Positions 3,715-42,981 of a DNA stretch of 54,215 nucleotides are shown in pieces; position 1 is the stretch's first letter, and every line of letters starts with the position of its first letter. The position numbers and the translations under genes are program-made. The notes below the pieces were generated by a model. The model was not told where the DNA came from, searched no databases, and saw only the letters and a program-made list of their open reading frames with translations. Origin of the DNA: Chloracidobacterium sp. (GTDB lineage Bacteria > Acidobacteriota > Blastocatellia > Pyrinomonadales > Pyrinomonadaceae); NCBI GenBank assembly GCA_031376085.1, contig JANMDA010000227.1:1-54215 (forward strand), read 5' to 3'.

Positions 3715-3800
3715 ACCGTCATATTGCTAAGAGTCCGAACAGCATACTCCTAAAAAACATTTATTTCAACCTAAAAATGGGCAAAAACTGATCCACAATC

Positions 3801-3830
3801 ATTATAAAGACAGCCTGTCCCGTCGGACAA
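3801..3830 (-). promoter_or_regulatory. putative sigma70-type promoter of the beta-helix gene
   Basis: The minus strand reads TTGTCC (3830-3825), 18-nt spacer, TATAAT (3806-3801), about 87 nt upstream of ATG 3714. Sequence match only. Confidence 0.3.
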
Positions 3831-3866
3831 ACTACCGCTTTTCGGCCAAATTTTGTTTATTAAATG

Positions 3867-6800: not shown

Positions 6801-7832
6801 GTCGTTTGCGTAGATTACATGGCAAGCCGTGCATCCCGCCGAGCGGTAGTCGCCGGCGTGGTCATTCGTCCCGAGAAAATTTAGCGTCGGGTCTAGCAGC
6901 CGCGTTTTTTGCAGGCCGAGATAGACGGGATCAGTGCGGTTGTTAGTGCCGAGGCCACGCTGGCTCAATCCCTTGTCGGGCCTACCGTTGTCTTCGTCCT
7001 TGTCGGGATTTCCAACCTCGAGACGTCGTTTTCCACCGCGTTCGAAAACGCGAAGGATGTTGCCTGGCTGCGATATTTCCCAGCGCGGCAGCGGATAGAG
7101 CGATTCGAGAAAGCCATCTTTTGCCTGCTGTTCGCGTGTCGGGGCAGGTGATTGAAACAACGCCTGCGGCTTGCCGTCTTCGTTATAGCTTTCGCCAAAA
7201 GCAGCGTCCTTGATCGGATAACCGCCGTTGTTATAAAGCGCCGCTCCCCACAGCATCGCTCCGTGTGCCATCATGCTGCGCGGGCTGCGTTTAGTTTCTT
7301 CCGCATGGCAAGTGCCGCACGTTTGAGTGATCACGCGAAAATCACCGGGATTGATAAAACGAACAAAATCACGGCTTTCTTTGGCAAGCAGCGTATTAGT
7401 TCGCTCCGGATTTCTGCTCGAACAGTCGCCATTCTTGCAGCCCCACTCTTTTGGAAACTTCGGCTGGACGTGAGCCTCTGCCTGTGTCGTTGCCGCCGGA
7501 TTACCTCCGTGACACGAAGTGCAGCTTAGATCTTGAGCGTCTTTGCCGTCTTTTAATGTTTCGTAAACATCGCCGCTGCTGTTGTATTTGTGCATCGGCT
7601 CGATATTGTTATGACACTTCAGGCAGCCTTCCATTGGCGGGTCGTCCGTTTTTGTCAGAGGCGCCGGGGCAGCGGGCAGGACTTGACGGTCAGTTTGTGC
7701 GGCGGGCGCGGGTGATGCGTCGTTTAATTTGGCAAGAGCCACGCTCTTCCACAACGCTGCGGCTAAAAAGCAGGCAAAAATGAGCAGGACGATCAGCTTG
7801 ATCCGTTTATGCATGTTCGTAACTGCGGCCAT
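3867..7832 (-). CDS. decahaem c-type cytochrome fused to a C-terminal LVIVD-repeat beta-propeller
   Basis: 10 CXXCH motifs (CLKCH, CTSCH, CGTCH, CTACH, CMTCH, CADCH, CVDCH, CYACH, CFGCH, CSNCH). The C-terminal ~450 aa has at least 6 LVIVD-type repeats ([59 protein letters not shown]). N-terminal signal/anchor [16 protein letters not shown]. The ORF track starts at GTG 7841. I prefer ATG 7832, which sits 8 nt after AAGGAG. Confidence 0.85.
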
Positions 7833-7844
7833 TTTCCTCACTCC

Positions 7845-9956: not shown

Positions 9957-10087
9957 AGCGCAAATTCTTCCAACAAAACTTCGGGCAAGATAAAATCAGA
10001 CTTCTTCTTCGGAGTTACTGACAGTCGTTGTAACATAAATTGCGCCTAAATGCCAAGTACTGAAATGACTTGACTATCGGGCGGGTT

Positions 10088-10095
10088 TGTATAAT
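10088..10095 (+). promoter_or_regulatory. extended -10 element (TGTATAAT) upstream of the plus-strand cytochrome operon
   Basis: Perfect TGnTATAAT at 10088-10095, with TTGACT at 10070-10075 but only a 14-nt spacer. It lies just 13 nt before ATG 10109, so it would give a very short leader. Sequence match only. Confidence 0.25.
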
Positions 10096-10108
10096 ATTCA
10101 GAAACATC

Positions 10109-11779
10109 ATGAAAAGTAAACAACTGGTAAGGAAGTTTAAGTTTTTTGCCGGATTTGTGATCTTGCTGATTTTGGGCCTCGATGCATATGCGCAAAATAG
10201 CCTGACGGCTGCTGACGTGCAGCGTATCATTGCCCAGGCGGTTTCCGAAGCCGTCGCGTCTAATCAGAAGGTGACCGTTTCGGTACTTGATAAGGAAGGA
10301 CACGTCTTAGGAACTTTCGTGATGACCGGCGCCGCGCCGACGACCACGATACGCGGCACGGGCAGATCGGGACAAGGTTTTGAGAATGTTACAGTGCCAT
10401 CGCGCTTTGCGTCGCTTTCAAAAGCCGGCACAGGTGCGTTGCTTTCATCGGGCGGCAACGCTTTCTCGACTCGAACCGCGTCGTTTATCATTCAGGAACA
10501 TTTTCCAGCGGGTATCGATAATACACCCGGCGGGCCGCTGTTTGGCGTGCAGTTTTCGTCGTTGAAATGTTCGGATGTTGTTATAGCCGGACTTCCACTT
10601 GGTTTGTCAGGCGATGCGGGTGGAATACCGCTTTACAAAAATGGTGTTGAGGTTGGCGGTGTCGGGGTTGAGGGCGACGGCTTGTATACGGCTGACACCA
10701 ATCCGAGAGACAACGATCAATCTTACGAAGAGAGAATAGCCGTCGCGGCTTCGCGTGGGTTTGAGGCTCCGGCGTTGATTCGCGCCGATAATATTCTTGT
10801 CGCTGGGCTTCGCTTTCCGTTTGCGAATATTAATGTTTCCGATTTTCCGGTTGCGACCGCGATTCCATTCGGCATTTTGCCCGGAGCGGTAGATCCGTCG
10901 GACCCGATCATCGCTGCTCCGGCGAGTGATTTTATTGCAAGAACATTGAACGGCGTCAGCGGACAGGCCAGTTCGCGGTTTCCGACCATAGCAGGCTCGG
11001 CTCTTACCGTCGCCGAGGTCGATTCCGTACTGGGAGCCGCAGCAGGTATTGCCAATATTACGCGGGCAGGCATTCGCCAGCCACTCGGCAGCAATGCACG
11101 CGTCAATATTTCCGTTGTCGATACCGATGGCAAAGTCCTTGGGTTTTTCCGGCAGCTTGATGCTCCGGTATTCGGCTTTGACGTGTCTGTGCAGAAGGCT
11201 CGCTCGGTGAATTTTATATCACGCACCGATGCTGGTGCGAAACTGAGCGCGAACGGGTTTGGTTCTTATGTAGCGCGGGCAAATGCCGATGGTATTGCTC
11301 TCAACGGAACTATCGCATTTAGCGACAGAGGTTTTGGCTTTTTGCATCGTCCGCTGTTTCCCGACGGCATAAACGGAACAGATGCCGGGCCGTTCAGCAA
11401 AATATTGGCCGATTTCAGTCCTTTTAATAACGGGCTGCAAGTCGATCTGATCTTTACCAGGGTTACGACGCCGATGCCGATGTGCCGCGGCGCGGTTATG
11501 GAAAAGCGGATGGTATTACCGCCGCAATGTCAGTGCACAACAATTTCGGAATTGAAAAACGGCTTACAAATATTTGCGGGCGGCATTCCGCTTTATCGCG
11601 GCAGCACGCTTATCGGCGCAATCGGTATCAGCGGTGACGGTATTGAGCAGGACGATCTGATCGCAGCCGGCGGAGCAAACTTGTTTCCCGTACCAGTGGC
11701 TATGCGGTCCGACAATTTCTTTGTTCGCAACGTGCGTCTTCCATTTGTAAAGTTTCCACCCAGGCCATTTTTACCTTAA
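10109..11779 (+). CDS. secreted protein with two GlcG/HbpS-like (DUF336, haem-binding fold) domains
   Basis: Signal peptide MKSKQLVRKFKFFAGFVILLILGLDAYA|Q. Two copies of the DUF336 signature: AADVQRIIAQAV...VTVSVLDKEGHVLG...GGIPLYKNGVEVGGVGVEGDG and VAEVDSVLGAA...VNISVVDTDGKVLG...GGIPLYRGSTLIGAIGISGDGIEQDD. Start moved from the track's 10070 to the ATG that precedes the signal peptide. Confidence 0.7.
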   Translation: MKSKQLVRKFKFFAGFVILLILGLDAYAQNSLTAADVQRIIAQAVSEAVASNQKVTVSVLDKEGHVLGTFVMTGAAPTTTIRGTGRSGQGFENVTVPSRFASLSKAGTGALLSSGGNAFSTRTASFIIQEHFPAGIDNTPGGPLFGVQFSSLKCSDVVIAGLPLGLSGDAGGIPLYKNGVEVGGVGVEGDGLYTADTNPRDNDQSYEERIAVAASRGFEAPALIRADNILVAGLRFPFANINVSDFPVATAIPFGILPGAVDPSDPIIAAPASDFIARTLNGVSGQASSRFPTIAGSALTVAEVDSVLGAAAGIANITRAGIRQPLGSNARVNISVVDTDGKVLGFFRQLDAPVFGFDVSVQKARSVNFISRTDAGAKLSANGFGSYVARANADGIALNGTIAFSDRGFGFLHRPLFPDGINGTDAGPFSKILADFSPFNNGLQVDLIFTRVTTPMPMCRGAVMEKRMVLPPQCQCTTISELKNGLQIFAGGIPLYRGSTLIGAIGISGDGIEQDDLIAAGGANLFPVPVAMRSDNFFVRNVRLPFVKFPPRPFLP

Positions 11780-11783
11780 TACA

Positions 11784-12587
11784 ATGCGTAGTCTTTGTTG
11801 GTGTCTTCTTATCGGCTTAGTTTTGCTCTCCGGCTGTCAGGCGGTGTTTGCACAGGCAATTCCCGCAACCGCCGGTGCATTGATCGTCAATGGCCGCGCA
11901 AAAATGGCTTCTAAAACGGTCATTCTCAAAAAAAAGAGGTTCTATCTTTTCCGTGGCGACCGTGAAGCAAATAAAACATTAATTGAAAAACTCAAGGCTG
12001 CGAATGTGGCTTCGCGCAACTGCTTTTATTACCAGTTGAAGGCAAGTGCCGAATTTATGGACTGGCTCAAAACTGGCGATTGCGAATCTGTCCATTGCCG
12101 CGAGATCACACAGGAAGACATCACAAAAGTGCCGGAGTTTCGAGACGCAAAAAAAAAGGGATTAGAAGGGCCAAGAAATTTCAATAAAAAACCGGAACTT
12201 GCGACTAAATGGCTCGTCACAAATCTCGAACCGGGCTTCCGTTCAGGATTTTATGATGCGCGAAAAGCAATGATCGAAGGGTTGCTCAAAGATATGTCCG
12301 AAGATCGACTTCCCGTTCAATCTGCAATGACGGACAACGGCTCATCAGCATTGGCAAATTTTTCTAATATAGTTTTAAAAACTACGGTCGAAAAATTTAT
12401 TTTTGCGAATCTAGTCCCGATTGAACTCGGTGAAAGAAGTTATGTTTGGGTCTGTGAAGTGGATGTTGGAAAAGACAAGAAAACCCCAATCCTTGATATG
12501 CCGGAAAGCAGTAAGGTGGTCAAAAAATGTGAAATAATCGTCCGCGATCTGCCCGTTTGTAAAGCAGGGATGTGTGAGCAGAAATGA
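11784..12587 (+). CDS. Cys-rich lipoprotein of unknown function
   Basis: Signal peptide ending in lipobox L-S-G-C (LVLLSGC). Nine further Cys residues. No recognisable domain. Stop and start overlap (ATGA) with the next cytochrome gene. Confidence 0.6.
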   Translation: MRSLCWCLLIGLVLLSGCQAVFAQAIPATAGALIVNGRAKMASKTVILKKKRFYLFRGDREANKTLIEKLKAANVASRNCFYYQLKASAEFMDWLKTGDCESVHCREITQEDITKVPEFRDAKKKGLEGPRNFNKKPELATKWLVTNLEPGFRSGFYDARKAMIEGLLKDMSEDRLPVQSAMTDNGSSALANFSNIVLKTTVEKFIFANLVPIELGERSYVWVCEVDVGKDKKTPILDMPESSKVVKKCEIIVRDLPVCKAGMCEQK

Positions 12588-13666
12588 AACTCTTTGTCAG
12601 ACTCATTTTTGTCGGGTTAGGCGCTGCTATTTTTGGCAGCAGTTTTCTGACGCACTCGATCGCACAACGAACTGCCAAAACCTTTTCGCATACTACAAAG
12701 TCTCATCAATACGCCGACTGCAAGGTGTGTCATACTTTGCCCTCAAGGAACTGGATGTCGCCGAGGGCCGACAAGGCAGACACATTTCCTGACGTGACGG
12801 ACTATCCTTTCAATGTGCCGGACACACAGGGAGCAGCGAAGCATACAGCCTGTTTTGGATGTCACACTAAGGATATTTATGTTAACGGCGGAGTTTTTTG
12901 CGCCGGTTGTCATATTGCTGCCGGGCCGAAGGCAAGGCCTGGAAACGGGCTTCGTCCATTTCCAAATAAAGCGCATGGGACGCAGTTCACGACCATCTTT
13001 CCGCATGACGCACATCAGGACATTATTGCTTCGAATGACCGAAGGAGTGATATTGCTTTAGGACATTTTGTACTCGCAAGTTTTACTGAAGCGCCGGATG
13101 GCAAGAAAACCGAATTTTACAACTGCTCAGTCTGCCATCAATCCGCAAAAATCTTGCCGAAATTTGCGGCTCGTAAACCCTTAACCGATCAAAAGCCGAC
13201 TGCGGCGGCCCCGGACGGTTTTAAGCCAACTGCGAATTATTTCAAAGATGCTCCGATAAATCATGCGTCGTGTTTTAACTGTCACTATCAGCGGATTCAG
13301 CCCGTTTCCACAAACTGCTCAGGCTGTCACAAACTTGTTGACAAGCCTTACTTTCCATCGACTGTGGTGGAACGTTCCTCATTAAAGTTCAGCCACGAAC
13401 AATTGGGCAAGAAATCGCAGGCCGGAGAGAGAGTTCATGCAAAGGACTGTATGACTTGCCACCTTCGAACTGCCGGAAGTTCCGATCTGCAGGCATACAA
13501 AAACAAGAGTGAGCCTGAGGTGCCGTTTTCGACATGCATTTCCTGTCATGGCGATGATATAAAGGATCAGCTTGAAAAGCGCGAAAAAGATAAAAAGTTT
13601 CAGTGCAATTATTGTCATACCTCGGCCATCGGCAGGTTCGATAAGCCTGAGAACCATCACGAATAA
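12584..13666 (+). CDS. periplasmic nonahaem c-type cytochrome (c3/c7-like)
   Basis: Signal peptide plus 9 CXXCH motifs (CKVCH, CFGCH, CAGCH, CSVCH, CFNCH, CSGCH, CMTCH, CISCH, CNYCH), with distal His motifs such as FPHDAH and KFSHEQ. Confidence 0.9.
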   Translation: MKLFVRLIFVGLGAAIFGSSFLTHSIAQRTAKTFSHTTKSHQYADCKVCHTLPSRNWMSPRADKADTFPDVTDYPFNVPDTQGAAKHTACFGCHTKDIYVNGGVFCAGCHIAAGPKARPGNGLRPFPNKAHGTQFTTIFPHDAHQDIIASNDRRSDIALGHFVLASFTEAPDGKKTEFYNCSVCHQSAKILPKFAARKPLTDQKPTAAAPDGFKPTANYFKDAPINHASCFNCHYQRIQPVSTNCSGCHKLVDKPYFPSTVVERSSLKFSHEQLGKKSQAGERVHAKDCMTCHLRTAGSSDLQAYKNKSEPEVPFSTCISCHGDDIKDQLEKREKDKKFQCNYCHTSAIGRFDKPENHHE

Positions 13667-13676
13667 TTAGAAAAAG

Positions 13677-14585
13677 ATGAAAAACGGGACGCGTTCAAAA
13701 TACATATTGAAAGCTGTGCTCGTTTTCGGCAGCGCAGTTCTTTTTGCCGCAGCTTGCCTTCAGCAGGCGGCGAAGTCGCCGGTGACGCTAACTTCGGCGG
13801 AAACGCCCGATCCAATTCCGCAGCGGGTATCAAGCAAGACGTTCGAAGCCTTTTCGCATAAAATTCCCGAGCACACGCAGTTTGCCTGCAACACTTGTCA
13901 TTTTCGCGAGGAGCGCGGAGTCAAGAGCCAGTTGGGCGGTCATGAATCCTGCATCGGCTGCCATTTGAATCAGTTTGTGGACGAAGATCAAGTCATGTGT
14001 GCGATTTGCCACACAGATACGAAAGGACAAGATCCGCCGGTCAAGGCATTTCCCGCGAAGTTTATCGAGGGTTTCAATATGAAGTTTGACCACGCGGCCC
14101 ATGAAAAAGGCGCCGCTCGCCCTGCTGAAGGATGCGCGGCTTGTCATGACCCTTCCGGGCCGGGGAAAACGATACCAGTCGGTTTTCAGGCACATGCCAA
14201 TTGCTACGGATGCCATACGGCGGAGAGCAAGCTCGGCCAGTGCAGCGTATGCCACGAGCTGGCGCCTTACAACCGAACGCTTCAGTCAGAGTATTCATTC
14301 AAGTCGATCTTCCGCCACGGCGACCACAAAATGGACTGCAACGAATGTCACAATGTCATTGCCGGTGTGCCGAACGCCCGACAAGTGACCAACATTCAAA
14401 TACTCGAACACAGGACGAGCCCCGGCAACAATTGCCTTCAATGCCACAACGGCAGACGTGCCTTTACCGGCAATAATAGCCTTGATGTAACAAGTTGCGC
14501 TCGTTGCCACGGCGGTGCAGTCTACACAAAGCTGCCATCGGGAACATATGCAGACACTGCCGAGGAAGCACCGGCTGAAAATTAA
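13677..14585 (+). CDS. periplasmic nonahaem c-type cytochrome (c3/c7-like), possible lipoprotein
   Basis: Signal peptide (weak lipobox FAAAC) plus 9 CXXCH motifs (CNTCH, CIGCH, CAICH, CAACH, CYGCH, CSVCH, CNECH, CLQCH, CARCH) and KFDHAAH. Confidence 0.9.
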   Translation: MKNGTRSKYILKAVLVFGSAVLFAAACLQQAAKSPVTLTSAETPDPIPQRVSSKTFEAFSHKIPEHTQFACNTCHFREERGVKSQLGGHESCIGCHLNQFVDEDQVMCAICHTDTKGQDPPVKAFPAKFIEGFNMKFDHAAHEKGAARPAEGCAACHDPSGPGKTIPVGFQAHANCYGCHTAESKLGQCSVCHELAPYNRTLQSEYSFKSIFRHGDHKMDCNECHNVIAGVPNARQVTNIQILEHRTSPGNNCLQCHNGRRAFTGNNSLDVTSCARCHGGAVYTKLPSGTYADTAEEAPAEN

Positions 14586-14592
14586 AGGCATT

Positions 14593-15282
14593 ATGAAAAA
14601 AAGCGCCAAATTGATCGTGATCTTTGTCTTCTCTCTGTGCGTTCTTTCCATTTTTTTGAGCGACAGTAATTTTGCAGGAACCGGCTCGGCGGGATTTTCA
14701 CACGCTTCCCAAACTCCTACACCGCTATCTCCAAAGGAAACAGTGGCCGTAACCGTTTCACCAACGTTGCAGCCATCGCAAACGGCAATTCCGACAAAGA
14801 CAACGACAATGCCTTCTGGGAACAGCACGTCTTTGGCCACTGCGTCGCAATCAGTGAAGAAAGATCTCTGCGCTTTAGATGAGACCGGAGAAAAGGGTGT
14901 TGTGCGGTTTGATCACGACGCGCACGCGTTTATTCCTAGTTATAGTGAAGATGGAAAGTCACCTGCCGGGTGCGTCGTATGTCATCACACCGATAAGCCG
15001 CCCGCCCGGAGCGTGCCCATGAAGTTTGAACTTTGGAAAGACTGGAAGGGTGACGAGAAGAAGGTAAAGAATTGTAAGGAATGCCATTTTCCGCTCGGCG
15101 ATATTCCGGAAGGCAAGGAGATGCTCGTCTTTAAGGGTAAAGATTATGACGACGAGAGGGCCTATCACGAAAATTGCACTGTCTGTCACGCTCAGGCCGC
15201 GCAGCGTCCTGCTTTCAAACCCAAATCCGGTTTTGTGACCAAGGTCTCAGGAGAATGCGTCCATTGTCACATATCGCCGTAA
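14593..15282 (+). CDS. membrane-tethered tetrahaem cytochrome c3-like protein with Ser/Thr/Pro-rich linker
   Basis: MKKSAKLIVIFVFSLCVLSIFLS anchor or signal, about 85 aa of low-complexity T/S/P-rich sequence, then RFDHDAHAF and 4 CXXCH motifs (CVVCH, CKECH, CTVCH, CVHCH). Start moved from 14515 to ATG 14593. Confidence 0.85.
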   Translation: MKKSAKLIVIFVFSLCVLSIFLSDSNFAGTGSAGFSHASQTPTPLSPKETVAVTVSPTLQPSQTAIPTKTTTMPSGNSTSLATASQSVKKDLCALDETGEKGVVRFDHDAHAFIPSYSEDGKSPAGCVVCHHTDKPPARSVPMKFELWKDWKGDEKKVKNCKECHFPLGDIPEGKEMLVFKGKDYDDERAYHENCTVCHAQAAQRPAFKPKSGFVTKVSGECVHCHISP

Positions 15283-15351
15283 AAAATACCGACGGTCGTG
15301 CCGAACACCAAAAATATTGACTTCGAATTAAAAAGACGTTTTAATAGCGTT

Positions 15352-16113
15352 ATGAAAAACACGGCTAAATTGATAGTAATTTCTGTTTTTGCACTGGGTG
15401 CTTTGTTTGTTTTTTTGAGTGGCAATAATTACTACAAAATCGATGCGGCTGGTTTTTTTGTAGCGATGGCGCAGCCGACTCCGCCAAAAAATAAAAACAC
15501 AAATTCTTCAGGCGCAAACAGCAACACAAAACCGATAGCTGGAAATACAGCTGCAAATGCGAATGTTGTAAAAACAATGCCTGCAATGACGGCCACTCCT
15601 GCAACGGTTCCGGCAAATACCGCCTCAAATACAAGTACAGTTCCACCATCAACAGGAGGCAAATCGATCCCAAAATCGTTTACCTTGGGACTGGACAGTC
15701 AGTCGGAATATGGCGAGGCCGCTTTTGATCATGATACTCACGCTTTTAAGAATTACAGCCCGGATGGAAAATCGGTAATGGGCTGCGTCGAATGTCACCA
15801 TACAGATCAACCCAAATCGGCATTAAAACTGCCCTATGTTACGTCAGAACGGAATGAGACATTGACGTTTGATGTGTGGCAGAAGTCCTCACAAAAAGTC
15901 AGCAGCTGTCGGGATTGTCATTTTCAGGACGGAAATGTTCCGGATGGAAAAACAATGCCGACATCCGGCAGCAAAGACCTAAATAATCAGCTCGCATACC
16001 ATATCAACTGTAATTCATGTCATGACGCCGCGTTTAAGGCGCGTCCGGAATTAAAAACTCACAAAGGGTTTGCAACCTCAAAAGACTGCGCCGTTTGCCA
16101 CAAAACGAGTTAA
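15352..16113 (+). CDS. membrane-tethered tetrahaem cytochrome c3-like protein (tandem paralogue of 14593-15282)
   Basis: MKNTAKLIVISVFALGALFVFLS anchor, about 100 aa of N/T/A/P-rich low-complexity sequence, then AFDHDTHAF and 4 CXXCH motifs (CVECH, CRDCH, CNSCH, CAVCH). Start moved from GTG 15298 to ATG 15352. Confidence 0.85.
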   Translation: MKNTAKLIVISVFALGALFVFLSGNNYYKIDAAGFFVAMAQPTPPKNKNTNSSGANSNTKPIAGNTAANANVVKTMPAMTATPATVPANTASNTSTVPPSTGGKSIPKSFTLGLDSQSEYGEAAFDHDTHAFKNYSPDGKSVMGCVECHHTDQPKSALKLPYVTSERNETLTFDVWQKSSQKVSSCRDCHFQDGNVPDGKTMPTSGSKDLNNQLAYHINCNSCHDAAFKARPELKTHKGFATSKDCAVCHKTS

Positions 16114-16117
16114 CCGA

Positions 16118-16561
16118 ATGGCCTTGCGGCAATGCGACAAATGTAGTGAAATGGTTGACGAGGCCAAGGCATTTTGCCCTGGTTGCGGCAACGCTTTTGT
16201 AGAGGAAGAGAAAAGGCAGGAAGCATCGAAGTTCGAGAAATTGGAACACACTGTCCAATTCGGCCAGACGATGTATAACCAGATGCTCGAGGATATGGGG
16301 CTGAATATCTCCAACGCACCAAATCCTGTAGAAAGACGCGTCGAGGTGATCGCTCCGGTAAATACGGAAATTACTGCTCCTGCAAAAGCTGCGGTGACCG
16401 TCGCAGTGCCGCCTGCCGTAAAGACGCCGGAAGTAAGCGTAACATCGTCGAGCAATATAAAGTGGTATATTCTTATCGGCGCCGCTGTTATTTTGCTTTT
16501 ACCGATCGCTCTAGCATCTGCGATCTTGCTTGTTTTAGATATCTTGTCGCGCTTAAAGTAA
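16118..16561 (+). CDS. zinc-ribbon protein with C-terminal transmembrane anchor
   Basis: N-terminal CDKC-x12-CPGC zinc-ribbon, an Ala/Pro/Val-rich linker, and a C-terminal helix WYILIGAAVILLLPIALASAILLVLDIL. Start placed at ATG 16118. Confidence 0.55.
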   Translation: MALRQCDKCSEMVDEAKAFCPGCGNAFVEEEKRQEASKFEKLEHTVQFGQTMYNQMLEDMGLNISNAPNPVERRVEVIAPVNTEITAPAKAAVTVAVPPAVKTPEVSVTSSSNIKWYILIGAAVILLLPIALASAILLVLDILSRLK

Positions 16562-16593: not shown

Positions 16594-17193
16594 ATGCCAC
16601 GTGTAATAGAAAACCACGAGCAGATAGTAGAGGCATTTCAAAATGTTGACATCGTATCCGAACTAGTTGAAAAACTGCCAAACGGCGAGTTTCGGAACGA
16701 GCTTGACATGGATATTATCTTGTTCGGCCGCAGCTATCGCGGTAAACAGGTCGGTCCCTACACGCGTCTCCTCGAATTTCTGCCCGGCGAAATAATAGTC
16801 GAAGAAAACTCCTGGGAAAGCAGCATCTTTTACATCCTCGTAAAAGGCGATCTCGAAGCCTCGATCACTGACGAAAACGGAAAACAAAAAAAGGTTGGAG
16901 CGATCCCGGCCGGCAACTCATTTGGTGAAATGGCCTTGCTTTCCGGAACGCCGAGAACCGCGACTGTCTCAGTTGCTTCGAAAGGTGAACCTGCGCTTGT
17001 TCTGGAATTTACCCGTCCGGCAATACGGCTACTGCGAAAACTGCCGAAATTCGGCAAAGCTCTCGACCGCAATTATCGGGCATACGGGCTGACGCTCACT
17101 TTGAATGACCTTAAAGATTTCAGGCATCTCGATCTTGACCCCGCATTGCTGCAGCGTTTGAATGACGCCGCGCGTTTCGCGGTCTATGAATAG
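16594..17193 (+). CDS. cyclic-nucleotide-binding domain protein; N-terminal fragment of a longer gene interrupted by in-frame TAG 17191-17193
   Basis: cNMP-binding signature FGEMALLSGTPRTATVSVAS. The C-terminus ...AARFAVYE* stops inside the start of a second cNMP-binding domain, which continues in the same frame at 17194. Confidence 0.7.
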   Translation: MPRVIENHEQIVEAFQNVDIVSELVEKLPNGEFRNELDMDIILFGRSYRGKQVGPYTRLLEFLPGEIIVEENSWESSIFYILVKGDLEASITDENGKQKKVGAIPAGNSFGEMALLSGTPRTATVSVASKGEPALVLEFTRPAIRLLRKLPKFGKALDRNYRAYGLTLTLNDLKDFRHLDLDPALLQRLNDAARFAVYE

Positions 17194-17199
17194 GATCAT

Positions 17200-19077
17200 G
17201 TGCTGTTTCGCGAAGGCGACCCTGTAAATCGAGTCGTTTTTGTTCGAAATGGTTGGATACAGCGTGTAAGCGGCGTCGAATTTAACCCAAAGGCAGCTGA
17301 TATTTTGCTCGAATCAGACGAGTCGGTCGGACTCGATTTTCTCGGGGCCGGCAGCTGCCTCGGCCTCGAATCAATAGAGAAATCAGGCAACTGGAGCTAT
17401 ACGGCCACCGTTCGCTCTCGAAGTGAGGTGCTTGAGATCGCTATTTCAAGGCTTCGTGAAGATACCGGTATGAGCTCTGCGGTCATGCCTTTCTTACGGT
17501 CTTCGTCCGGGGCAGACGATTCAAATACGCCATCGCACCCTTCCGATACACGCGTAATAACCGCTGCCAGCCGTGAGATCGAAACCGGTGTTGTCGACGG
17601 CGTAAATCTGCTGGTAATGGACATGGCCAAGTGCATCCGCTGCGGCAACTGTTCGCTTGCGTGCCACAAGGTTCATGGTAATTCGCGCCTGACCAGACGC
17701 GGTATTCATATCGAACGGCCATTCAAAGCAAACAAACCGGCGATCCAAAGCGTCTTGGTGCCGACGGTTTGCATGCATTGCCAGGATCCGGAATGCCTGA
17801 CCGGCTGTCCGACCGGTGCGATCGCCCGCTTTCCGAACGGCGAGATCGACATCAATCCCACAACCTGCATAGGTTGCGGCGACTGCGCTACGCAATGTCC
17901 GTACAATGCCATTTCTATGATTCCCCGGCCTGATCCCAAAAATGCGAATGGCAAAGGAGTGGTTTCGAATCTCTTTTCGGCGTTCTCGCTCAGCGAAGCA
18001 AAAATGCCCGAGCCTGTCGAGCAAACAGAAAACTTGCTTGCCGTAAAGTGCAATCTTTGTCACGACACGGGAATGAATCCGAAGGGTGCAAAGACCGAAG
18101 CCTACTCGTGCGAAGAAAATTGTCCGACCGGCGCACTTGTTCGTGTAAACCCGCGCGAGTATTTTGACGAGGTAAACCAGGCGATTGGATTCATACAGCG
18201 GACCGAAACTCACGCGATCGGTGTCAATATACATAAATTCGATCTAAAGGCGACTATCTGGCATGTGATCGGTGTTTTTTTTGTTTTGGTACTCGGCGGC
18301 TTAGCTGTGTGGGCTACACGCTTTTTTGCACAAGATATTCCGTTGAGTACCGGCGGTTGGATGACGATGCGGTGGTTAACGGGACTTACTGGTTTGGTGA
18401 GCATCGTTTGGGTGATGGCCTATCCGCTTAGAAAACAGGTCTATCGCCGCCGAGCAGGAGCGTTGAGATATTGGATGCTTTCGCATATCTATCTGGGCGT
18501 TTTGGCTGGCGTTGTATTGTTGGTTCACGGCGGTACAAGCTCAGGCGGTTTATTGACCACGGCTTTGATGATCTCGTTCGATATGGTGATAGCCAGCGGG
18601 CTTTTCGGTGCCGCGTGCTACATCATTGTGCCGCGTTTTATGACTAAGATCGAACGCGAGCCTCTGCTTTTAGAAGACCTCGAAGCCCGCCGCGAAGAGC
18701 TCCGAGCCGAACTTGTTCGTGCAACCGAGCAAACTGCTAATGAAGAGCTTCATGTGTTGATCCAAAGAAAAGTACGTCGCCGTTTCCTCGGGCTGGGTTA
18801 CCTAATCCGGCAGTATTTTAAGAAAGAAGATTTGCCGACAATGCTGGCCGATGCCCGTGAAGAATTTCGCTCGGCGGCAGAAAAGATGAGCCGTTCCGAT
18901 GACGCGCGATTGATGGAAGCGGTCGAAAATGCTGCGACGCTGCGCCGTGTCGATGCACTTTGTTATCTTCACCAGTCACTTAAGTTGTGGGTCGCACCGC
19001 ATGTGCTGTTTACGGCTTTGATGTTAGTGCTTATGTTGATCCATATAGTTCAGGTTGTTTATTTTAATGTTCGATGA
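17200..19077 (+). CDS. cNMP-binding / 4x[4Fe-4S] ferredoxin / putative di-haem-b membrane protein (continuation of 16594-17193)
   Basis: (D)HVLFREGDPVNRVVFVRNG... is a cNMP-binding barrel. Four Cys clusters: CIRCGNCSLAC, CMHCQDPECLTGCP, CIGCGDCATQCP, CNLC...CEENCP. Five predicted TM helices, two of them with His-x13-His (His codons at 18484/18526 and 19000/19042). The only in-frame start after the TAG is GTG 17200. Confidence 0.75.
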   Translation: MLFREGDPVNRVVFVRNGWIQRVSGVEFNPKAADILLESDESVGLDFLGAGSCLGLESIEKSGNWSYTATVRSRSEVLEIAISRLREDTGMSSAVMPFLRSSSGADDSNTPSHPSDTRVITAASREIETGVVDGVNLLVMDMAKCIRCGNCSLACHKVHGNSRLTRRGIHIERPFKANKPAIQSVLVPTVCMHCQDPECLTGCPTGAIARFPNGEIDINPTTCIGCGDCATQCPYNAISMIPRPDPKNANGKGVVSNLFSAFSLSEAKMPEPVEQTENLLAVKCNLCHDTGMNPKGAKTEAYSCEENCPTGALVRVNPREYFDEVNQAIGFIQRTETHAIGVNIHKFDLKATIWHVIGVFFVLVLGGLAVWATRFFAQDIPLSTGGWMTMRWLTGLTGLVSIVWVMAYPLRKQVYRRRAGALRYWMLSHIYLGVLAGVVLLVHGGTSSGGLLTTALMISFDMVIASGLFGAACYIIVPRFMTKIEREPLLLEDLEARREELRAELVRATEQTANEELHVLIQRKVRRRFLGLGYLIRQYFKKEDLPTMLADAREEFRSAAEKMSRSDDARLMEAVENAATLRRVDALCYLHQSLKLWVAPHVLFTALMLVLMLIHIVQVVYFNVR

Positions 19078-20498
19078 GCAAGAAAACAGGAAAATTTACA
19101 GTCTCATATGCCGATCTGCTTCTCCAGACAAGATCGGTCGAGAAAGATGGCATCTATATTGGACGGCTGGAAACCTGTGAGGTCTTTTTAGATCATAAGA
19201 CCGTTTCGCGAATTCATGCGGGCATCAATTTTCAGGACGAAAATTACAATTTAGTAAATCTCTCGACATCAAATGTCCTAACGCTTAACGGCCGCCGTCT
19301 AGCATCGAAACAATCCGATGTCCTGGCCGACGGCGATACTATTCAGATCGGCCCGTTTACTATACTTGTCGCCCGTCTCGGCGATGAATTATTGTTGGTC
19401 GTCGATCAGCAATTTGCAGAGCGGACACCTCAGGGAGTGTTACATTCCCCTCAGGCCGCAAAGCCTTCTGCGGCTGAAGAAGCCGGAGGTGTCTTAGACG
19501 TATTTTGGGAAAAGCGTTCGCGAGACAAGGACGACTGGGGAACACGCCTTCGCCCGACGGAGAAACCAAAACCGGGCAAGGCAATGTTCAATTGGAAGCC
19601 AACGCGCGATCTACGGCCCACATGGCGAGCTGGATTATTTATTTGGGCATTTCTCATAATCGGTGCACTAGGCGTGTATGCGTTTTTTCGCCACCCGGAA
19701 ACCTATGCACCAAAACCTCTTTCAAATCCTCATGCCTCGAAGATCGAGAACAGCGTGATCGCCGCAGCAGCCAACGGAAACTCTTGCACGACATGTCACA
19801 CACTCAATGAAGGGGTCGAAAATTCCTGTATCAAATGTCATTCGGCGTCAGAATTTCACTCGACCAATACAAAGGCACACGAGCAAGCGGGCATAACCTG
19901 CACGATGTGTCACCGCGAACATCAGGGAGCCGATTTTGATATAATAGCGACTGCTATTCAAACATGTTCCGAATGTCATAACGACAAAAACTCAAATACT
20001 TACAAAGGGAAAACTGTTCACACCGCACACGAGGGCTCTTACGGTTACCCGGCGATTGGCGGCATCTGGAAATGGAAAGGTGTTTACCGCGAAGTTGCCG
20101 AAGCGATACCGGAGATCAATCGCAGCGCGACCGGCGACAAAGATGAACAGGCAAAATTGAGCCGTCAGTTTCATACTGTTCACTTATATCGCCTACAGGT
20201 GCCCGAACCATTAAAAGGTGACAAACGCGGTCTTGTAACGTGTTCCACATGTCATGATAGTTTCGGTACGGCTATCGACAGAGTGAAGCCGCGTCAAACC
20301 TGCGCAGCTTGCCATACGACACAGGCAGATGCGGCGAACCGTGACAAGCGTTTTAACGCAGGCGGTGCAAATTGTATTTCCTGCCACGTTCAGCATCCAT
20401 ACAGCACAGGAAGATGGAGCGAATTTCTAACCACGGACGCTTTAGACAGGCGAAAAGAAGCGATCACGAGTAAGATCAACCAACTTAGCGGACAATGA
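19074..20498 (+). CDS. FHA domain - single TM - heptahaem c-type cytochrome fusion
   Basis: N-terminal FHA signature (IGR...VSRIHAGI...LVNLSTSNVLTLNGRRL...GDTIQIG). TM helix AGLFIWAFLIIGALGVYAFF. Seven CXXCH motifs (CTTCH, CIKCH, CTMCH, CSECH, CSTCH, CAACH, CISCH). ATGA overlaps with both neighbouring genes. Confidence 0.85.
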   Translation: MSKKTGKFTVSYADLLLQTRSVEKDGIYIGRLETCEVFLDHKTVSRIHAGINFQDENYNLVNLSTSNVLTLNGRRLASKQSDVLADGDTIQIGPFTILVARLGDELLLVVDQQFAERTPQGVLHSPQAAKPSAAEEAGGVLDVFWEKRSRDKDDWGTRLRPTEKPKPGKAMFNWKPTRDLRPTWRAGLFIWAFLIIGALGVYAFFRHPETYAPKPLSNPHASKIENSVIAAAANGNSCTTCHTLNEGVENSCIKCHSASEFHSTNTKAHEQAGITCTMCHREHQGADFDIIATAIQTCSECHNDKNSNTYKGKTVHTAHEGSYGYPAIGGIWKWKGVYREVAEAIPEINRSATGDKDEQAKLSRQFHTVHLYRLQVPEPLKGDKRGLVTCSTCHDSFGTAIDRVKPRQTCAACHTTQADAANRDKRFNAGGANCISCHVQHPYSTGRWSEFLTTDALDRRKEAITSKINQLSGQ

Positions 20499-22390
20499 AA
20501 TTTTTTCATCTCTTCATTTGCGTTGTGCTCATCGGCTTTTTGATCTGGCTGAACCAGACGTTTGTCCCGGCGGACGTTACTCATTACGGCGGGCTGTCGT
20601 GGATCGGTTGGGCAAGCATTTTGTTTGTCGGTTTCGGCATCGGACTTCTCTTTGTATTTAATGATTCGTCACGCGCCTTTGGTTTCTTTAAAGCTCGCGA
20701 TGAGAAGGCCGCTCCGCCGACAAATATTCGAACGCTCTCGAAAGTGGAGCTTACCGAACTAGGCCTCGACAAATACCGCGGGCCGAGTTATCCGCACCCT
20801 GTGATTTTCCCGGAAAGATGCATCGGCTGTCAGGCTTGTGTCGATGCTTGTCCTCATGACGTGCTTGCGATCGTCGATGGAACTGCTTCGGCGGTTGCTC
20901 CCGACCTTTGCATGGAGGACACTGCCTGTCAGGCGGAATGTCCCGTTAATCCAAAAGCGTGCATTATCATCAACACGGCTAAGGATGTGCGCTCGCTTCC
21001 GACGCCGACGCGCGATGGGTCAACTTTTCAAACCAATGTGCCCGGATGTTTTATCATCGGCGATGTTTCCGGCGTTCCGCTGATCAAGAATGCGGTGAAG
21101 GAGGGTGCAGATGTAATTACCCATATTGTTGATGAACTAAAGCGCGCGCCACAGGAACCTAAGGCGGATTACGATGTAGCGATCATCGGCATCGGCCCGG
21201 GCGGAGCATCCGCAGCGGCCTCGGCTCAAGAGGCCAATCTTCGATATGTCGGTATCGAACAGGATAAGATATTGTCCACCATCGACCTGTATCCGAAAGG
21301 CAAATATATTTTCTTCAAACCAGATACAAAGGACTGGTCGGGAGGCATTCCGGTCACGGGCCTTGGCCTTTCAAAGGCTAAATACGGCGGCGGAGAAAGT
21401 GATGACGATCAGCCGATCTTTGACGCATTGGGACAAGACCTAAACACGATCGTGCATGAACAGGCCTCTGTGCTTCACAGCGAAATGATCACAAAGATCT
21501 CAACGTCACTCCATAAAAAACTTTCGCCAAAGCTGTCTGAAAAGCTTGAGAAGGAGTTGAAGAAACGTATTGCCGGTTATCTGCGTTCAAAAGGCTCGGC
21601 TGACTGGGCGAAGATTTTTCAAACGCAGTTCCTTAACGAACAAAATAATCTGTTACCGGTTTTCCGCTCCGATATAGCCGATCAGCTTCAAACCAAAATT
21701 CCGGGCGATCAGCGCGAGAACATTCTCGACATATGGCTCGGCAGCCTGAATGAGAAAGGAGTAAAGATCAACGAAAATGAAAGCTGCAAAACGGTAAATC
21801 GAGCCGAGGACGGCGATTATTTTGTGATCAATACCGAACGCAGCACTGAAAAATCTCCACAGACATACAAGGCACGACGAGTGATCATTGCCATCGGACT
21901 TCGCGGTGCGCCGAACAAACTTCGGCTGCCAAATGAAGATCTGAAATTTAAGATCGAAGGCCGCGAAGAACAAAAGGTCATCTATGGACTGTCAAATCCT
22001 GATGATTTTTGGGGAAACCGCATAATTGTCGTTGGCGGCGGTAATGTCGCCGTCGAAGCCGCCGTAGATCTGGTCGCCACACGCGACGGAGCTGCGATCA
22101 CTCCGCGAACGCCTGAGACAATGAATAAAGTGACATTGCTGGTTCGCGACTATCTTGCTCCAACGGTTAAGTTTGGAAATAAATTTCAACTTTACCAATG
22201 CGCTGATAACGGCATCATCGACCTGCAGTTCGGTGCAGGCATCAAGGAAATGCGCGAAAATGAAGTCGTGTTGGAAGATGTAAAAACTAAGAAGGAACTG
22301 GAAACGATCCCGAACGATTACATTTTTGCGCTAATCGGCGGCGAGAGGCCGAACAGGTTTTTAGAATCGATAGGTATTACGATCAAGTAG
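20495..22390 (+). CDS. membrane-anchored 4Fe-4S ferredoxin / FAD-NAD(P)-binding oxidoreductase
   Basis: Two N-terminal TM helices. CIGCQACVDACP and CQAECP ferredoxin motifs. GCFIIGDVSGVPLIKNAVKEG (FAD 'GD' motif). YDVAIIGIGPGGASAA (GxGxxG). IIVVGGGNVAVEAAVDL (second dinucleotide fold). Confidence 0.8.
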   Translation: MKFFHLFICVVLIGFLIWLNQTFVPADVTHYGGLSWIGWASILFVGFGIGLLFVFNDSSRAFGFFKARDEKAAPPTNIRTLSKVELTELGLDKYRGPSYPHPVIFPERCIGCQACVDACPHDVLAIVDGTASAVAPDLCMEDTACQAECPVNPKACIIINTAKDVRSLPTPTRDGSTFQTNVPGCFIIGDVSGVPLIKNAVKEGADVITHIVDELKRAPQEPKADYDVAIIGIGPGGASAAASAQEANLRYVGIEQDKILSTIDLYPKGKYIFFKPDTKDWSGGIPVTGLGLSKAKYGGGESDDDQPIFDALGQDLNTIVHEQASVLHSEMITKISTSLHKKLSPKLSEKLEKELKKRIAGYLRSKGSADWAKIFQTQFLNEQNNLLPVFRSDIADQLQTKIPGDQRENILDIWLGSLNEKGVKINENESCKTVNRAEDGDYFVINTERSTEKSPQTYKARRVIIAIGLRGAPNKLRLPNEDLKFKIEGREEQKVIYGLSNPDDFWGNRIIVVGGGNVAVEAAVDLVATRDGAAITPRTPETMNKVTLLVRDYLAPTVKFGNKFQLYQCADNGIIDLQFGAGIKEMRENEVVLEDVKTKKELETIPNDYIFALIGGERPNRFLESIGITIK

Positions 22391-22393
22391 CAG

Positions 22394-23140
22394 ATGAGAA
22401 AAGATAATATTATGTTTGCCATGCTTGGCCTGGTCGCAGGCCTCGCTATCGGATTTATCGGTGCCAACAGCATCAATAGATCAACCTTTGAAAAACAGCC
22501 TGCTTCTATGGCCTCTAGCGGCGAGTCAAACAGCAATCCGGCACTTCCGCCAAATCATCCGCCGCTCAACAATTCGGCCAGTAATTCATCTCAGAGCGAT
22601 CCGCGTCCGGAAGTGATGGTTGCGATCGAAAAGGCAAAAGCACAGCCGCAGAATTACGAAGCTCAAATGACGGCTGCCGATCTCTATTATCAGATACAGC
22701 GTTTTGACGAAGCGGCAAAATTTTATGAGGCGGCGGCAAAATTAAAACCTGCCGACATCGAACCGATGATAAAAGCAGGGAACGCCTTTTTTGATGCTGC
22801 ACAATTGGCCGCTGAGAATGATGACGATAAAGTCGCGACGCCAACGTTTGTGCTTGCGGAAAAATGGTATCAACAAGCTCTTCAAAAAGAGCCAAGGAAT
22901 TTAAGTGTAAGGACAGATCTCGGTTTGACATTTTTCCTTCGGATTCCGCGCGATGTTGATCGGGCGATCAAAGAGTTCAAGACATCGTTAAGCATTGACC
23001 CCAACCATGAGAAAAGCCTACAGAATCTTGCAACTGCTTATAAAGAAAACGGCGATAAAGAAAACTATCAATCAACGATAGAAAAGCTAAAAAAGATAAA
23101 TCCGAACAATCCCCTCTTTACAAAAACCGAGACAAAATAA
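22394..23140 (+). CDS. membrane-anchored TPR-repeat protein
   Basis: N-terminal helix MFAMLGLVAGLAIGFIGA, a low-complexity linker, then TPR-like repeats (AADLYYQIQRFDEAAKFYEAAAKLKPADIE, AEKWYQQALQKEPRN, AIKEFKTSLSIDPNHEKSLQNLATAY). Confidence 0.7.
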   Translation: MRKDNIMFAMLGLVAGLAIGFIGANSINRSTFEKQPASMASSGESNSNPALPPNHPPLNNSASNSSQSDPRPEVMVAIEKAKAQPQNYEAQMTAADLYYQIQRFDEAAKFYEAAAKLKPADIEPMIKAGNAFFDAAQLAAENDDDKVATPTFVLAEKWYQQALQKEPRNLSVRTDLGLTFFLRIPRDVDRAIKEFKTSLSIDPNHEKSLQNLATAYKENGDKENYQSTIEKLKKINPNNPLFTKTETK

Positions 23141-42977: not shown

Positions 42978-42981
42978 TAAT

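Follow-up and report, generated by a model that had tools for sequence, protein, structure and literature searches.

The window analysed here, the whole of a 54,215-nucleotide stretch from a Chloracidobacterium species (contig JANMDA010000227.1), carries on its forward strand a gene (19074..20498) that codes, from an ATG start codon, for a protein of 474 amino acids (aa) in which a forkhead-associated (FHA) domain is joined through one transmembrane (TM) helix to a heptahaem c-type cytochrome. The translation and its Pfam matches define this arrangement, and more than 120 full-length homologs are of like architecture. The gene is coupled to both of its neighbours, since its start overlaps the stop of the gene upstream and its stop overlaps the start of the gene downstream, each time within an ATGA (19074-19077 on the 5' side and 20495-20498 on the 3' side). 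An initial annotation, made from the sequence alone, had pointed out this double coupling together with an FHA core, a TM helix near residue 190 and seven CXXCH motifs, and our analysis found all of these in the protein, which we refer to as the FHA-cytochrome.

The FHA domain occupies residues 1-112 (19074..19409, + strand) and is predicted to be cytoplasmic. The Pfam profile PF00498 matches residues 28-93 with E=1.4e-13 and 51.5 bits, above the gathering score of 20.7, which answers the concern of the initial annotation that the profile might fall below threshold. The motifs G30-R31, S45-R46-x-H48, N72-G73 and G87-D88-T-I-Q-I-G93 are present; the first three are invariant in an alignment of 20 homologs (A1), in which N67 is conserved at 90% or more. 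An AlphaFold2 model of the whole FHA-cytochrome has a mean predicted local distance difference test (pLDDT) score of 49.5 and is usable for the FHA domain and the helix only. Over residues 1-112 it gives a beta-sandwich of about 11 strands (residues 6-112, pLDDT 60-87), which Foldseek matched with a probability of 1.0 to the FHA structures of Ki67, DgcB, GarA, OdhI and FhaA. The closest solved sequences are those of the phospho-threonine readers GarA/Rv1827, OdhI, EmbR, FhaA and DgcB.

Between this domain and the membrane lies a cytoplasmic juxtamembrane segment (residues 138-185; 19485..19628, + strand) that includes W-K-P-T177-R-D-L. The segment is nearly invariant in A1, and its motif W-x-P-T-x-D-L, directly ahead of the TM helix, shows little or no variation even in a second alignment of 18 sequences at 23-40% identity (A2). 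The TM helix that follows, AGLFIWAFLIIGALGVYAFF, corresponds to residues 186-205 (19629..19688, + strand; residues 184-206 are helical in the AlphaFold2 model). It is the sole strongly hydrophobic stretch of the protein and its position is kept in all relatives. Its flanks carry a net charge of about +5 on the N-terminal side and about +1 on the C-terminal side, which by the positive-inside rule favours an N-in, C-out orientation, and the FHA end has no signal peptide. The heptahaem domain is thus predicted to be periplasmic, as the maturation of haem c requires, with the FHA domain in the cytoplasm. The initial annotation had proposed this topology and had also considered the opposite outcome, with both halves on the same side. 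The hydropathy and charge analysis would place the FHA domain inside and the haem domain outside, in agreement with 13 natural fusions, described below, in which the haem domain is bracketed by TM segments between domains of cytoplasmic type.

The haem domain itself (residues 206-474; 19689..20495, + strand) has CXXCH motifs at residues 238, 252, 276, 298, 390, 410 and 434, which account for 14 of the 15 cysteines of the protein. In 20,000 shuffles of the protein sequence the mean number of CXXCH motifs was 0.019 and the maximum was two. Three Pfam profiles score above threshold, namely Cytochrom_c3_2 (38.9 vs 25), Paired_CXXCH_1 (28.4 vs 20.6) and Cytochrome_C7 (26.4 vs 24.8). All seven motifs and eight additional histidines are invariant in A1, while A2, which reaches down to 23% identity, retains the seven motifs and six of these histidines without exception and a seventh at 90% or more. 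Exactly seven motifs were also found in each complete ortholog of the 80 genome loci (L001-L080) that were retrieved, with flanks of up to 10 kb a side, from the 132 species in which the family was detected. The conserved histidines are sufficient in number for all seven haems to be bis-His ligated, which is probably the case, and such a pattern would be typical of electron wires. Short partial similarities to DmsE/MtrA-type, CctA-type and c7-like cytochromes are all far below the family cutoffs. Residues 188-258, covering the TM helix and the first haems, show a weak sequence match to the c7-like subunit of the structure 8k9e, which we take to be Alternative Complex III and which also contains a polyferredoxin subunit. 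The first CXXCH lies about 30 residues from the TM helix.

The gene downstream (20495..22390, + strand) codes for a ferredoxin-flavoprotein with two N-terminal TM helices, a ferredoxin part for two [4Fe-4S] clusters (Pfam Fer4) and a FAD/NAD(P)H flavoprotein of the thioredoxin reductase (TrxR) fold (Pfam Pyr_redox_2/3). The latter has the GxGxxG FAD site and a second Rossmann motif, GGGNVA, and its YpdA-like NCBIfam match of 114 bits is below cutoff. A true thioredoxin reductase was rejected, as the redox-active CxxC is missing, and a TrxR fold without CxxC would be better termed a ferredoxin:NAD(P)H-type reductase. Residues ~295-403 of the flavoprotein form an insertion of about 110 residues, predicted to be helical and rich in Lys, Glu and Ser, which is missing in fused and distant relatives, so that the alignments skip from ~294 to ~404.

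The gene upstream (16594..19077, + strand) codes for a protein with two cyclic nucleotide monophosphate (cNMP)-binding domains, four [4Fe-4S] motifs, five TM helices and two His-x13-His pairs, as defined with Pfam and NCBIfam profiles, 67 orthologs and an AlphaFold2 model. Its N-terminal cNMP-binding domain is canonical, with an FGE...PRTA cassette, and the second is degenerate. Sixteen cysteines, conserved at 99% or more in the 67 orthologs, form four ferredoxin motifs, and this iron-sulfur (FeS) part is nearest to the four-cluster subunits ArrB, PsrB/NrfC and FdnH, with the best NCBIfam scores going to ArrB and DsrO-type proteins. The histidine pairs H429/H443 on TM3 and H601/H615 on TM5 are invariant in the 67 orthologs, which come from both acidobacterial clades of the family. 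In the AlphaFold2 model the membrane domain consists of five helices with a cytoplasmic helical insert, and TM3 and TM5 run in the same orientation, which brings the inner two and the outer two histidines into register. Dihaem cytochromes b, among them the cytochrome b of bc1 complexes and NOX, ligate their haems through histidine pairs placed like this on two parallel helices, and the membrane domain is a candidate for binding two stacked haems b.

In the window this upstream gene is interrupted. An in-frame TAG at 17191-17193 divides it into an open reading frame (ORF) of 199 aa for cNMP binding and one of 625 aa for the FeS-TM part, while the homologs examined are single proteins of 824-828 aa (~826) with a lysine at the position of the stop (VYEKDHVLF vs VYE*DHVLF). 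One base change, AAG to TAG, separates the two states. An AGGA lies a few bases 5' of a GTG at 17200, from which re-initiation is conceivable, and the TAG could reflect an error of sequencing, a true division of the gene with translation restarting at that GTG, or an inactivation. The initial annotation had described this neighbour as an FeS/His-x13-His protein coupled through ATGA. The coupling stands, but the description was incomplete, given that the relatives are one ~826-aa protein with two cNMP-binding domains of which the window holds a copy cut by the TAG.

A database search for the combined FHA and CXXCH architecture, as the initial annotation had proposed, showed that the family is sizeable and centred on the Acidobacteriota. 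A word-indexed search returned 771 relatives of the FHA-cytochrome, the best 120 of them full-length and with identical Pfam architecture; the named relatives among these 120 are proteins of Pyrinomonadaceae metagenome-assembled genomes (MAGs), annotated merely as 'FHA domain-containing protein'. The 132 species come from a scan of one genome per species, and the 80 loci retrieved all belong to Acidobacteriota, and to Pyrinomonadaceae/Blastocatellia where a finer classification exists; among them is a divergent clade at ~40% identity. An exhaustive profile search of 1.84 billion cluster representatives gave 69 clusters at E<=1e-30. Dissection with sub-profiles recovered many complete FHA-TM-heptahaem clusters below 50% identity, forms with two to five FHA domains and long forms of 930-1380 aa. 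Taxon names were available for 3 of 30 representatives: a fused form belongs to Blastocatellia, another cluster to Acidobacteriota, and a distant member with two FHA domains, a TM helix and seven haems to a Deltaproteobacteria MAG. A word-indexed search started from distant representatives returned mainly the second Pyrinomonadaceae clade.

The association of the three genes is equally widespread. The order cNMP/FeS-TM protein, FHA-cytochrome, ferredoxin-flavoprotein is kept in essentially all of the 80 genome loci, and in total about 130 loci retain it, at identities as low as ~30% for the FHA-cytochrome and ~40% for the FeS-TM partner. In each metagenome locus long enough to include it, the FeS-TM gene lies immediately upstream, with a partner identity of 40-59%. 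The clade at ~40% identity has the other cytochrome genes on the opposite strand, with linkage retained. Moreover, the FHA-cytochrome and the ferredoxin-flavoprotein are fused in more than 25 representative clusters (50% level). The DNA of 13 metagenome loci verified one uninterrupted ORF of the form FHA-TM-7xCXXCH-TM-Fer4-Pyr_redox, with 36 loci carrying two adjacent genes, and a hydropathy scan showed the haem domain to be flanked by a single hydrophobic segment at either end in 11 of the 12 verified fusions that include the FHA end. The haem domain is also fused to a cytA-like cytochrome in P0262 and to a TPR domain in P0341, and both of these partners are neighbours in the window. Synteny and fusions together rule out chance adjacency of the three core genes. 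The fusions are strong evidence for a predicted physical complex of the FHA-cytochrome with its neighbours, which agrees with the stoichiometric complex suggested by the initial annotation, and likewise for an in/out/in topology, as one helix stands between the haem domain and either of its flanking parts, the FeS/flavin and FHA domains, which would be cytoplasmic.

Four variants without a haem domain (P0289, P0304, P0333 and P0345) have the FHA domain with its juxtamembrane segment and helix joined directly to the ferredoxin-flavoprotein, and for this reason FHA domain and flavoprotein appear to be the more fundamental pairing. These variants also bear on a reading of the FHA-cytochrome as a transmembrane redox sensor, in which the periplasmic haems would sense the redox state of the periplasm or of the extracellular acceptor pool and the FHA domain would change its binding to cytoplasmic proteins or phosphoproteins. 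FHA domains are signalling modules, the nearest solved relatives GarA, OdhI, DgcB and EmbR are regulators, the partner bears cNMP-binding domains, and the juxtamembrane segment is strongly conserved, as it is in receptors. However, a set of seven haem sites, all invariant and with ligands of bis-His type, is typical of a wire rather than a sensor; many lineages have the protein fused to an oxidoreductase; and the haem-less variants keep FHA domain and flavoprotein together, which shows the FHA domain to be independent of the haem domain. Nor is a kinase, transcription factor or output domain linked to the gene, and we regard a sensor function as quite improbable.

Instead, we consider it reasonably probable that the FHA-cytochrome is the periplasm-facing subunit of a three-protein inner-membrane module that moves electrons outward from NAD(P)H. 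In this module electrons would pass from NAD(P)H to FAD and to the two FeS clusters of the flavoprotein, then to the four FeS clusters of the upstream partner and across the membrane over its two haems b, and finally to the seven haems c of the FHA-cytochrome, which would deliver them to co-encoded periplasmic and surface multihaem cytochromes. Such an export route would be independent of quinones or use them only optionally. The FHA domain would sit on the cytoplasmic face beside the FeS and flavin domains and most likely dock or position them, in a manner that may depend on phospho-threonine in the Pyrinomonadaceae clade, and the N-terminal cNMP domain of the partner could provide control by a second messenger. 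Redox potentials and the membrane potential favour the outward direction, from which we infer it.

Several points weigh against this proposal. The in-frame TAG in the partner gene means that the module may be impaired in the window, or made as two chains. The assignment of the haems b comes from the histidine pattern alone: no Pfam family covers the TM domain of the partner, the Ferric_reduct profile does not match it, and its model is of low confidence (pLDDT 60), with a best Foldseek match in the PDB at E 0.5. For the heptahaem domain the AlphaFold2 model has a pLDDT below 50 and is unusable for fold inference. The direction of flow is argued from thermodynamics alone, and a role for quinones is possible.

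This last point is taken furthest by a reading as a quinol dehydrogenase of the CymA/NapC/NrfH/ActA type, in which the TM helix and the membrane-proximal haems would oxidise menaquinol and feed periplasmic cytochromes, leaving the FeS protein and the flavoprotein as accessory proteins or a separate input branch. One TM helix with a multihaem periplasmic domain is the architecture expected, the weak match to the c7-like subunit of 8k9e points the same way, and the analogy has been proposed for an FHA-nonahaem protein of Ferrigenium (bioRxiv 10.64898/2026.01.22.701106). Nevertheless, the protein has no match to the NapC/NirT Pfam family (Cytochrom_NNT, E<=0.1) and scores 14.5 bits against a cutoff of 134.2 for NrfH (TIGR03153), its helix is internal and follows a cytoplasmic N-terminal part of 185 residues, and the ~30 residues between helix and first CXXCH also speak against it. 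The obligate linkage or fusion to a cytoplasmic ferredoxin-flavoprotein would be unexpected for a simple quinol oxidase, and we judge this reading improbable.

The chain proposed for the three-protein module could in principle also run backwards, since redox chains are reversible. Periplasmic or extracellular donors, Fe(II) for instance, would then feed electrons into the seven haems, to reach NAD(P)+ through the haem b pair and the FeS clusters, a reversal that has been considered for iron oxidisers with genes for FHA-multihaem proteins. Such proteins are conserved in Gallionellaceae that oxidise Fe(II), and their expression accompanies this oxidation, which lends this direction some support, although they are likened to the window family by description only. 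On bioenergetic grounds, however, transfer from c haems of higher potential to NAD(P)+, against the membrane potential, would be strongly uphill, and no energy-coupling subunit is evident. Pyrinomonadaceae are, in addition, known as aerobic heterotrophs. Inward uptake is therefore very unlikely in our view.

With outward electron export as the preferred reading, evidence on the role of the FHA domain comes from its phospho-threonine pocket. The pocket residues, R31 of G-R, S45 and H48 of S-x-x-H, and N67 of the beta6-7 loop, are all present in the window protein. Among 119 sequences of its clade, R31, S45, R46 and H48 are each found in all or nearly all, the phosphate-contacting Arg/Ser pair (R31 and S45) in 117 and the full R/S/H/N set in 109. 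The pair is also kept in 109/119 sequences of the second acidobacterial clade, but only in 10/34 distant or fused representatives, 24 of which have lost it while retaining the FHA domain, sometimes in two to five copies. The near-universal pocket implies that it is under purifying selection in the window's clade, without being universal to the family. The loss of the pair in most distant and fused relatives that keep the domain suggests that phospho-independent docking was the ancestral role.

The juxtamembrane segment offers a possible ligand. T177 is the sole invariant cytoplasmic threonine of the FHA-cytochrome and is always followed by leucine at position +3; pT-x-x-(I/L/V) is a frequent FHA ligand pattern, and GarA, OdhI and DgcB bind a phospho-threonine of their own tails. 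By this analogy, T177 is a candidate self-ligand of the FHA domain. The motif persists where the pocket has decayed, and so it must serve another role too. A bolder form of the export proposal makes the module a hitherto unrecognised class of inner-membrane NAD(P)H:multihaem-cytochrome oxidoreductases that works without the quinone pool, in which a Ser/Thr kinase would phosphorylate T177 (P-T-R-D-L) or a partner, the FHA domain would bind the phospho-threonine and thereby couple or uncouple the FeS/flavin donors from the haem wire, and cAMP or cGMP would act as a second switch. Taken as a whole, this form is doubtful.

Against the phospho-switch stand the degenerate pocket of most distant relatives and the lack of an obvious enzyme. 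No Hanks kinase catalytic-loop motif was found in the six frames of the window or of the fetched flanks of the 80 loci, a regular-expression search that atypical kinases would escape, and the Pfam scan of the other large ORFs of the window revealed no kinase or phosphatase, PP2C phosphatases not having been specifically searched in the 80 loci. Thus, of the link to Ser/Thr-kinase signalling drawn by the initial annotation, the pocket of the window's clade and the nearest solved relatives, which read phospho-threonine, speak in favour, but the kinase motif is missing around the gene and the Arg/Ser pair is kept in a minority of distant relatives. Bacterial Ser/Thr kinases often act on targets encoded elsewhere in the genome. 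A signalling role is plausible and probably specific to the clade.

Within the same export scheme, the FHA domain could also be a purely structural adaptor that works independently of phosphorylation, as in type III secretion system (T3SS) proteins of the YscD/PrgH type, with no link to Ser/Thr phosphorylation even in the window's clade. The Pfam profile Yop-YscD_cpl passes its threshold over the same stretch as the FHA match (36.4 vs 33.2 bits), and both the decay of the Arg/Ser pair and the absence of a kinase gene from the fetched flanks would fit. On the other hand, a pocket conserved to this degree in 119 sequences and an invariant T-x-x-L motif within the protein itself weigh against a mere adaptor, and the habit of bacterial kinases to act on unlinked targets lessens the weight of the missing gene. 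We see a purely structural domain as a real but tentative possibility.

The three core genes lie in a wider cytochrome cluster that spans 3.8-23.1 kb of the window and contains 43 CXXCH motifs in six proteins, with most of its genes syntenic in relatives. Four exported multihaem cytochromes (12584..16113, + strand), recognised by their CXXCH counts, N-terminal hydrophobic segments and Pfam matches, comprise a 9-haem MtrC-like protein, the 9-haem cytA, and cytB and cytC with four haems each, and their linkage to the core genes is seen in the two acidobacterial clades as well as in metagenome loci. The genes for cytB and cytC (14515-16113, + strand) are tandem paralogs; most related loci show one gene there, with both queries matching the same stretch, which looks like a local duplication common to few loci such as L003. 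Between these cytochromes and the core lies a gene for a small protein with weak zinc-ribbon Pfam matches and a C-terminal TM helix (16070..16561, + strand; conserved in 49/80 loci). The fused protein P0265 carries a double zinc ribbon (DZR) at residues 902-946, inside its flavoprotein domain, a hint that a zinc ribbon contributes to the function of the module. Downstream of the core, a membrane-anchored TPR protein (22394..23140, + strand; Pfam TPR, N-terminal hydrophobic segment) is a conserved member in 54/80 loci. It shows a sub-threshold match to the TPR domain of the apocytochrome chaperone CcmH/CycH (PF23914, 21 vs 42 bits), and a likewise faint PF23914 match was seen for the TPR homolog in L161/L162; the protein might be a dedicated helper of cytochrome maturation.

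Two secreted proteins with signal-like N-termini head the cluster (10070..12587, + strand), one of 569 aa that is HbpS-like (Pfam, 67 bits) and one of 267 aa without a family match, and their genes are syntenic in 41-45 of the 80 loci. Transcribed divergently (3867..9956, - strand) are genes for a 703-aa CarboxypepD_reg protein and a 1324-aa LVIVD-repeat protein with 10 CXXCH motifs. The former, a possible outer-membrane component, is syntenic wherever the flank extends far enough (29 loci). The 1324-aa protein, with its 10 CXXCH motifs and LVIVD beta-propeller repeats, adjoins a 976-aa cohesin/dockerin/beta-helix protein (both within 784-7841, - strand), which suggests a cell-surface redox assembly. 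The rest of the window is a cluster for polysaccharide biosynthesis and export (27.8-53 kb) that includes Poly_export, a GNVR/AAA_31 Wzc-like protein, NeuB, UDP-GlcNAc 2-epimerase, an ABC transporter and Wzy_C. Three asparagine-synthase-like paralogs (AsnB-type amidotransferases) lie in or beside it (23164-24930, - strand; 34400-36157, + strand; 42946-44856, + strand). No secretion-system genes and no cell-division context were found in the window.

Pyrinomonadaceae and other Blastocatellia are among the commonest Acidobacteria of soil and wastewater, and their energy metabolism is poorly understood. If the module works as proposed, it would give them a route for extracellular electron transfer over more than 40 c-type haems, with iron, manganese and humics as possible acceptors; to our knowledge no such route has been assigned to these groups so far. 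With its FHA and cNMP domains it would be the first conduit of this kind to have signalling inputs of its own and, should gating through T177 and the FHA domain hold, the first in respiration or extracellular electron transfer to be governed directly by the recognition of phospho-threonine. Whether Ser/Thr phosphorylation or cyclic nucleotides gate the respiratory export of electrons in bacteria could be tested directly on such a module, and its biochemical reconstitution is simple to design, as the natural fusions fix subunit composition and topology beforehand.

Among known systems, the module is most readily compared with TmcABCD, HmcABCDEF and DsrMKJOP of sulfate reducers, which likewise combine a periplasmic multihaem cytochrome c, a probable haem b membrane protein and cytoplasmic FeS proteins, co-encoded and moving electrons through the inner membrane. 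The proteins of the window nevertheless score far below the cutoffs of these families (DsrO 65.3 vs 200; HmcB 41.5 vs 420; TmcA and HmcA also below), and no CCG/HdrD-type subunit was detected in any protein of the window cluster. Furthermore, the four-cluster ferredoxin does not lie in the periplasm but in the cytoplasm, on one chain with the membrane domain, and the input is a flavoprotein of NAD(P)H type. We know of no FHA or cNMP-binding domains in the Dsr, Hmc or Tmc complexes.

The NADPH oxidases and ferric reductases NOX, FRE, STEAP and bacterial MsrQ-Fre resemble the proposed module in passing electrons from cytoplasmic NAD(P)H to a flavin, over two stacked bis-His haems b, to an acceptor outside, the haems b being candidates in our case. 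The histidines of each pair are spaced by about 13 residues, and the pairs sit on two parallel helices. The invariant H429/H443 and H601/H615 on TM3 and TM5 reproduce the NOX-type pattern, without a significant structural match from the low-confidence model. Unlike these enzymes, the partner in the window has no Ferric_reduct match, the flavoprotein is a separate chain of TrxR rather than FNR fold, six FeS clusters would stand between flavin and haem b, and the acceptor would be a covalently anchored heptahaem cytochrome c. NapC/NirT/NrfH/CymA proteins and ActA of Alternative Complex III share with the FHA-cytochrome a single TM helix that anchors a periplasmic multihaem domain feeding periplasmic redox partners, but they have four or five haems instead of seven, their profiles do not match it, and its helix is internal, after 185 residues of FHA domain and linker. 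Membership in the NapC/NrfH, MtrA/DmsE, TagH and OdhI families was rejected, as all scores were below cutoff; the decahaem MtrA/DmsE profile (TIGR03508) gave 40.5 vs 192.2 bits in a partial match to residues 248-317 only, and NCBIfam scores and cutoffs were 46.2/120 for TagH, 34.6/200 for OdhI, 32/650 for GltG and 22.9/125 for FipA.

On the regulatory side, bacterial FHA regulators and FHA-TM proteins have the FHA fold in common with the FHA-cytochrome and, as regards the window's clade, the full phospho-threonine pocket, and the binding of a tail phospho-threonine by GarA, OdhI and DgcB parallels the invariant T177-x-x-L. YscD, FipA and GltG-type proteins share the order of FHA domain, one TM helix and periplasmic domain. 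In contrast to the FHA-cytochrome, none of these FHA regulators and FHA-TM proteins (GarA/OdhI, DgcB, FhaA, FhaB/FipA, YscD of T3SS, and TagH/Fha of type VI secretion systems) has a redox domain.

The closest parallel in architecture comes from iron-oxidising bacteria. A full-text literature search found FHA-multihaem proteins mentioned only in a Gallionellaceae pangenome from 2023, where a table lists a 'Forkhead-associated protein' with 10 CXXCH motifs in 27 genomes (PMC10734462), and in a 2026 preprint on Ferrigenium straubiae (bioRxiv 10.64898/2026.01.22.701106). The latter describes 'NHC', a nonahaem membrane cytochrome with one TM helix whose FHA domain is cytosolic and whose gene adjoins genes for a 5-TM protein and a [4Fe-4S] protein, and states that the combination was previously unreported and its function unknown (bioRxiv 10.64898/2026.01.22.701106). 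These mentions come without characterisation, and the statement of the initial annotation that no FHA-cytochrome fusion has been characterised still holds. The Gallionellaceae proteins have in common with ours the cytosolic FHA domain, the single TM helix and the periplasmic multihaem domain, beside 5-TM and [4Fe-4S] proteins that equal the parts of the fused FeS-TM partner; they differ in having nine to ten haems instead of seven, in belonging to another phylum, and in neighbours that are split and include no reported flavoprotein. The match of parts, a comparison of parts lists and not of sequences, suggests that the Ferrigenium genes may represent this module with its parts split, in a different phylum, and the module described here gives a testable framework for the FHA-multihaem proteins of iron-oxidising Gallionellaceae. 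Set beside all of these systems, it is an uncharacterised variant of the transmembrane redox complexes, with unprecedented regulatory domains.

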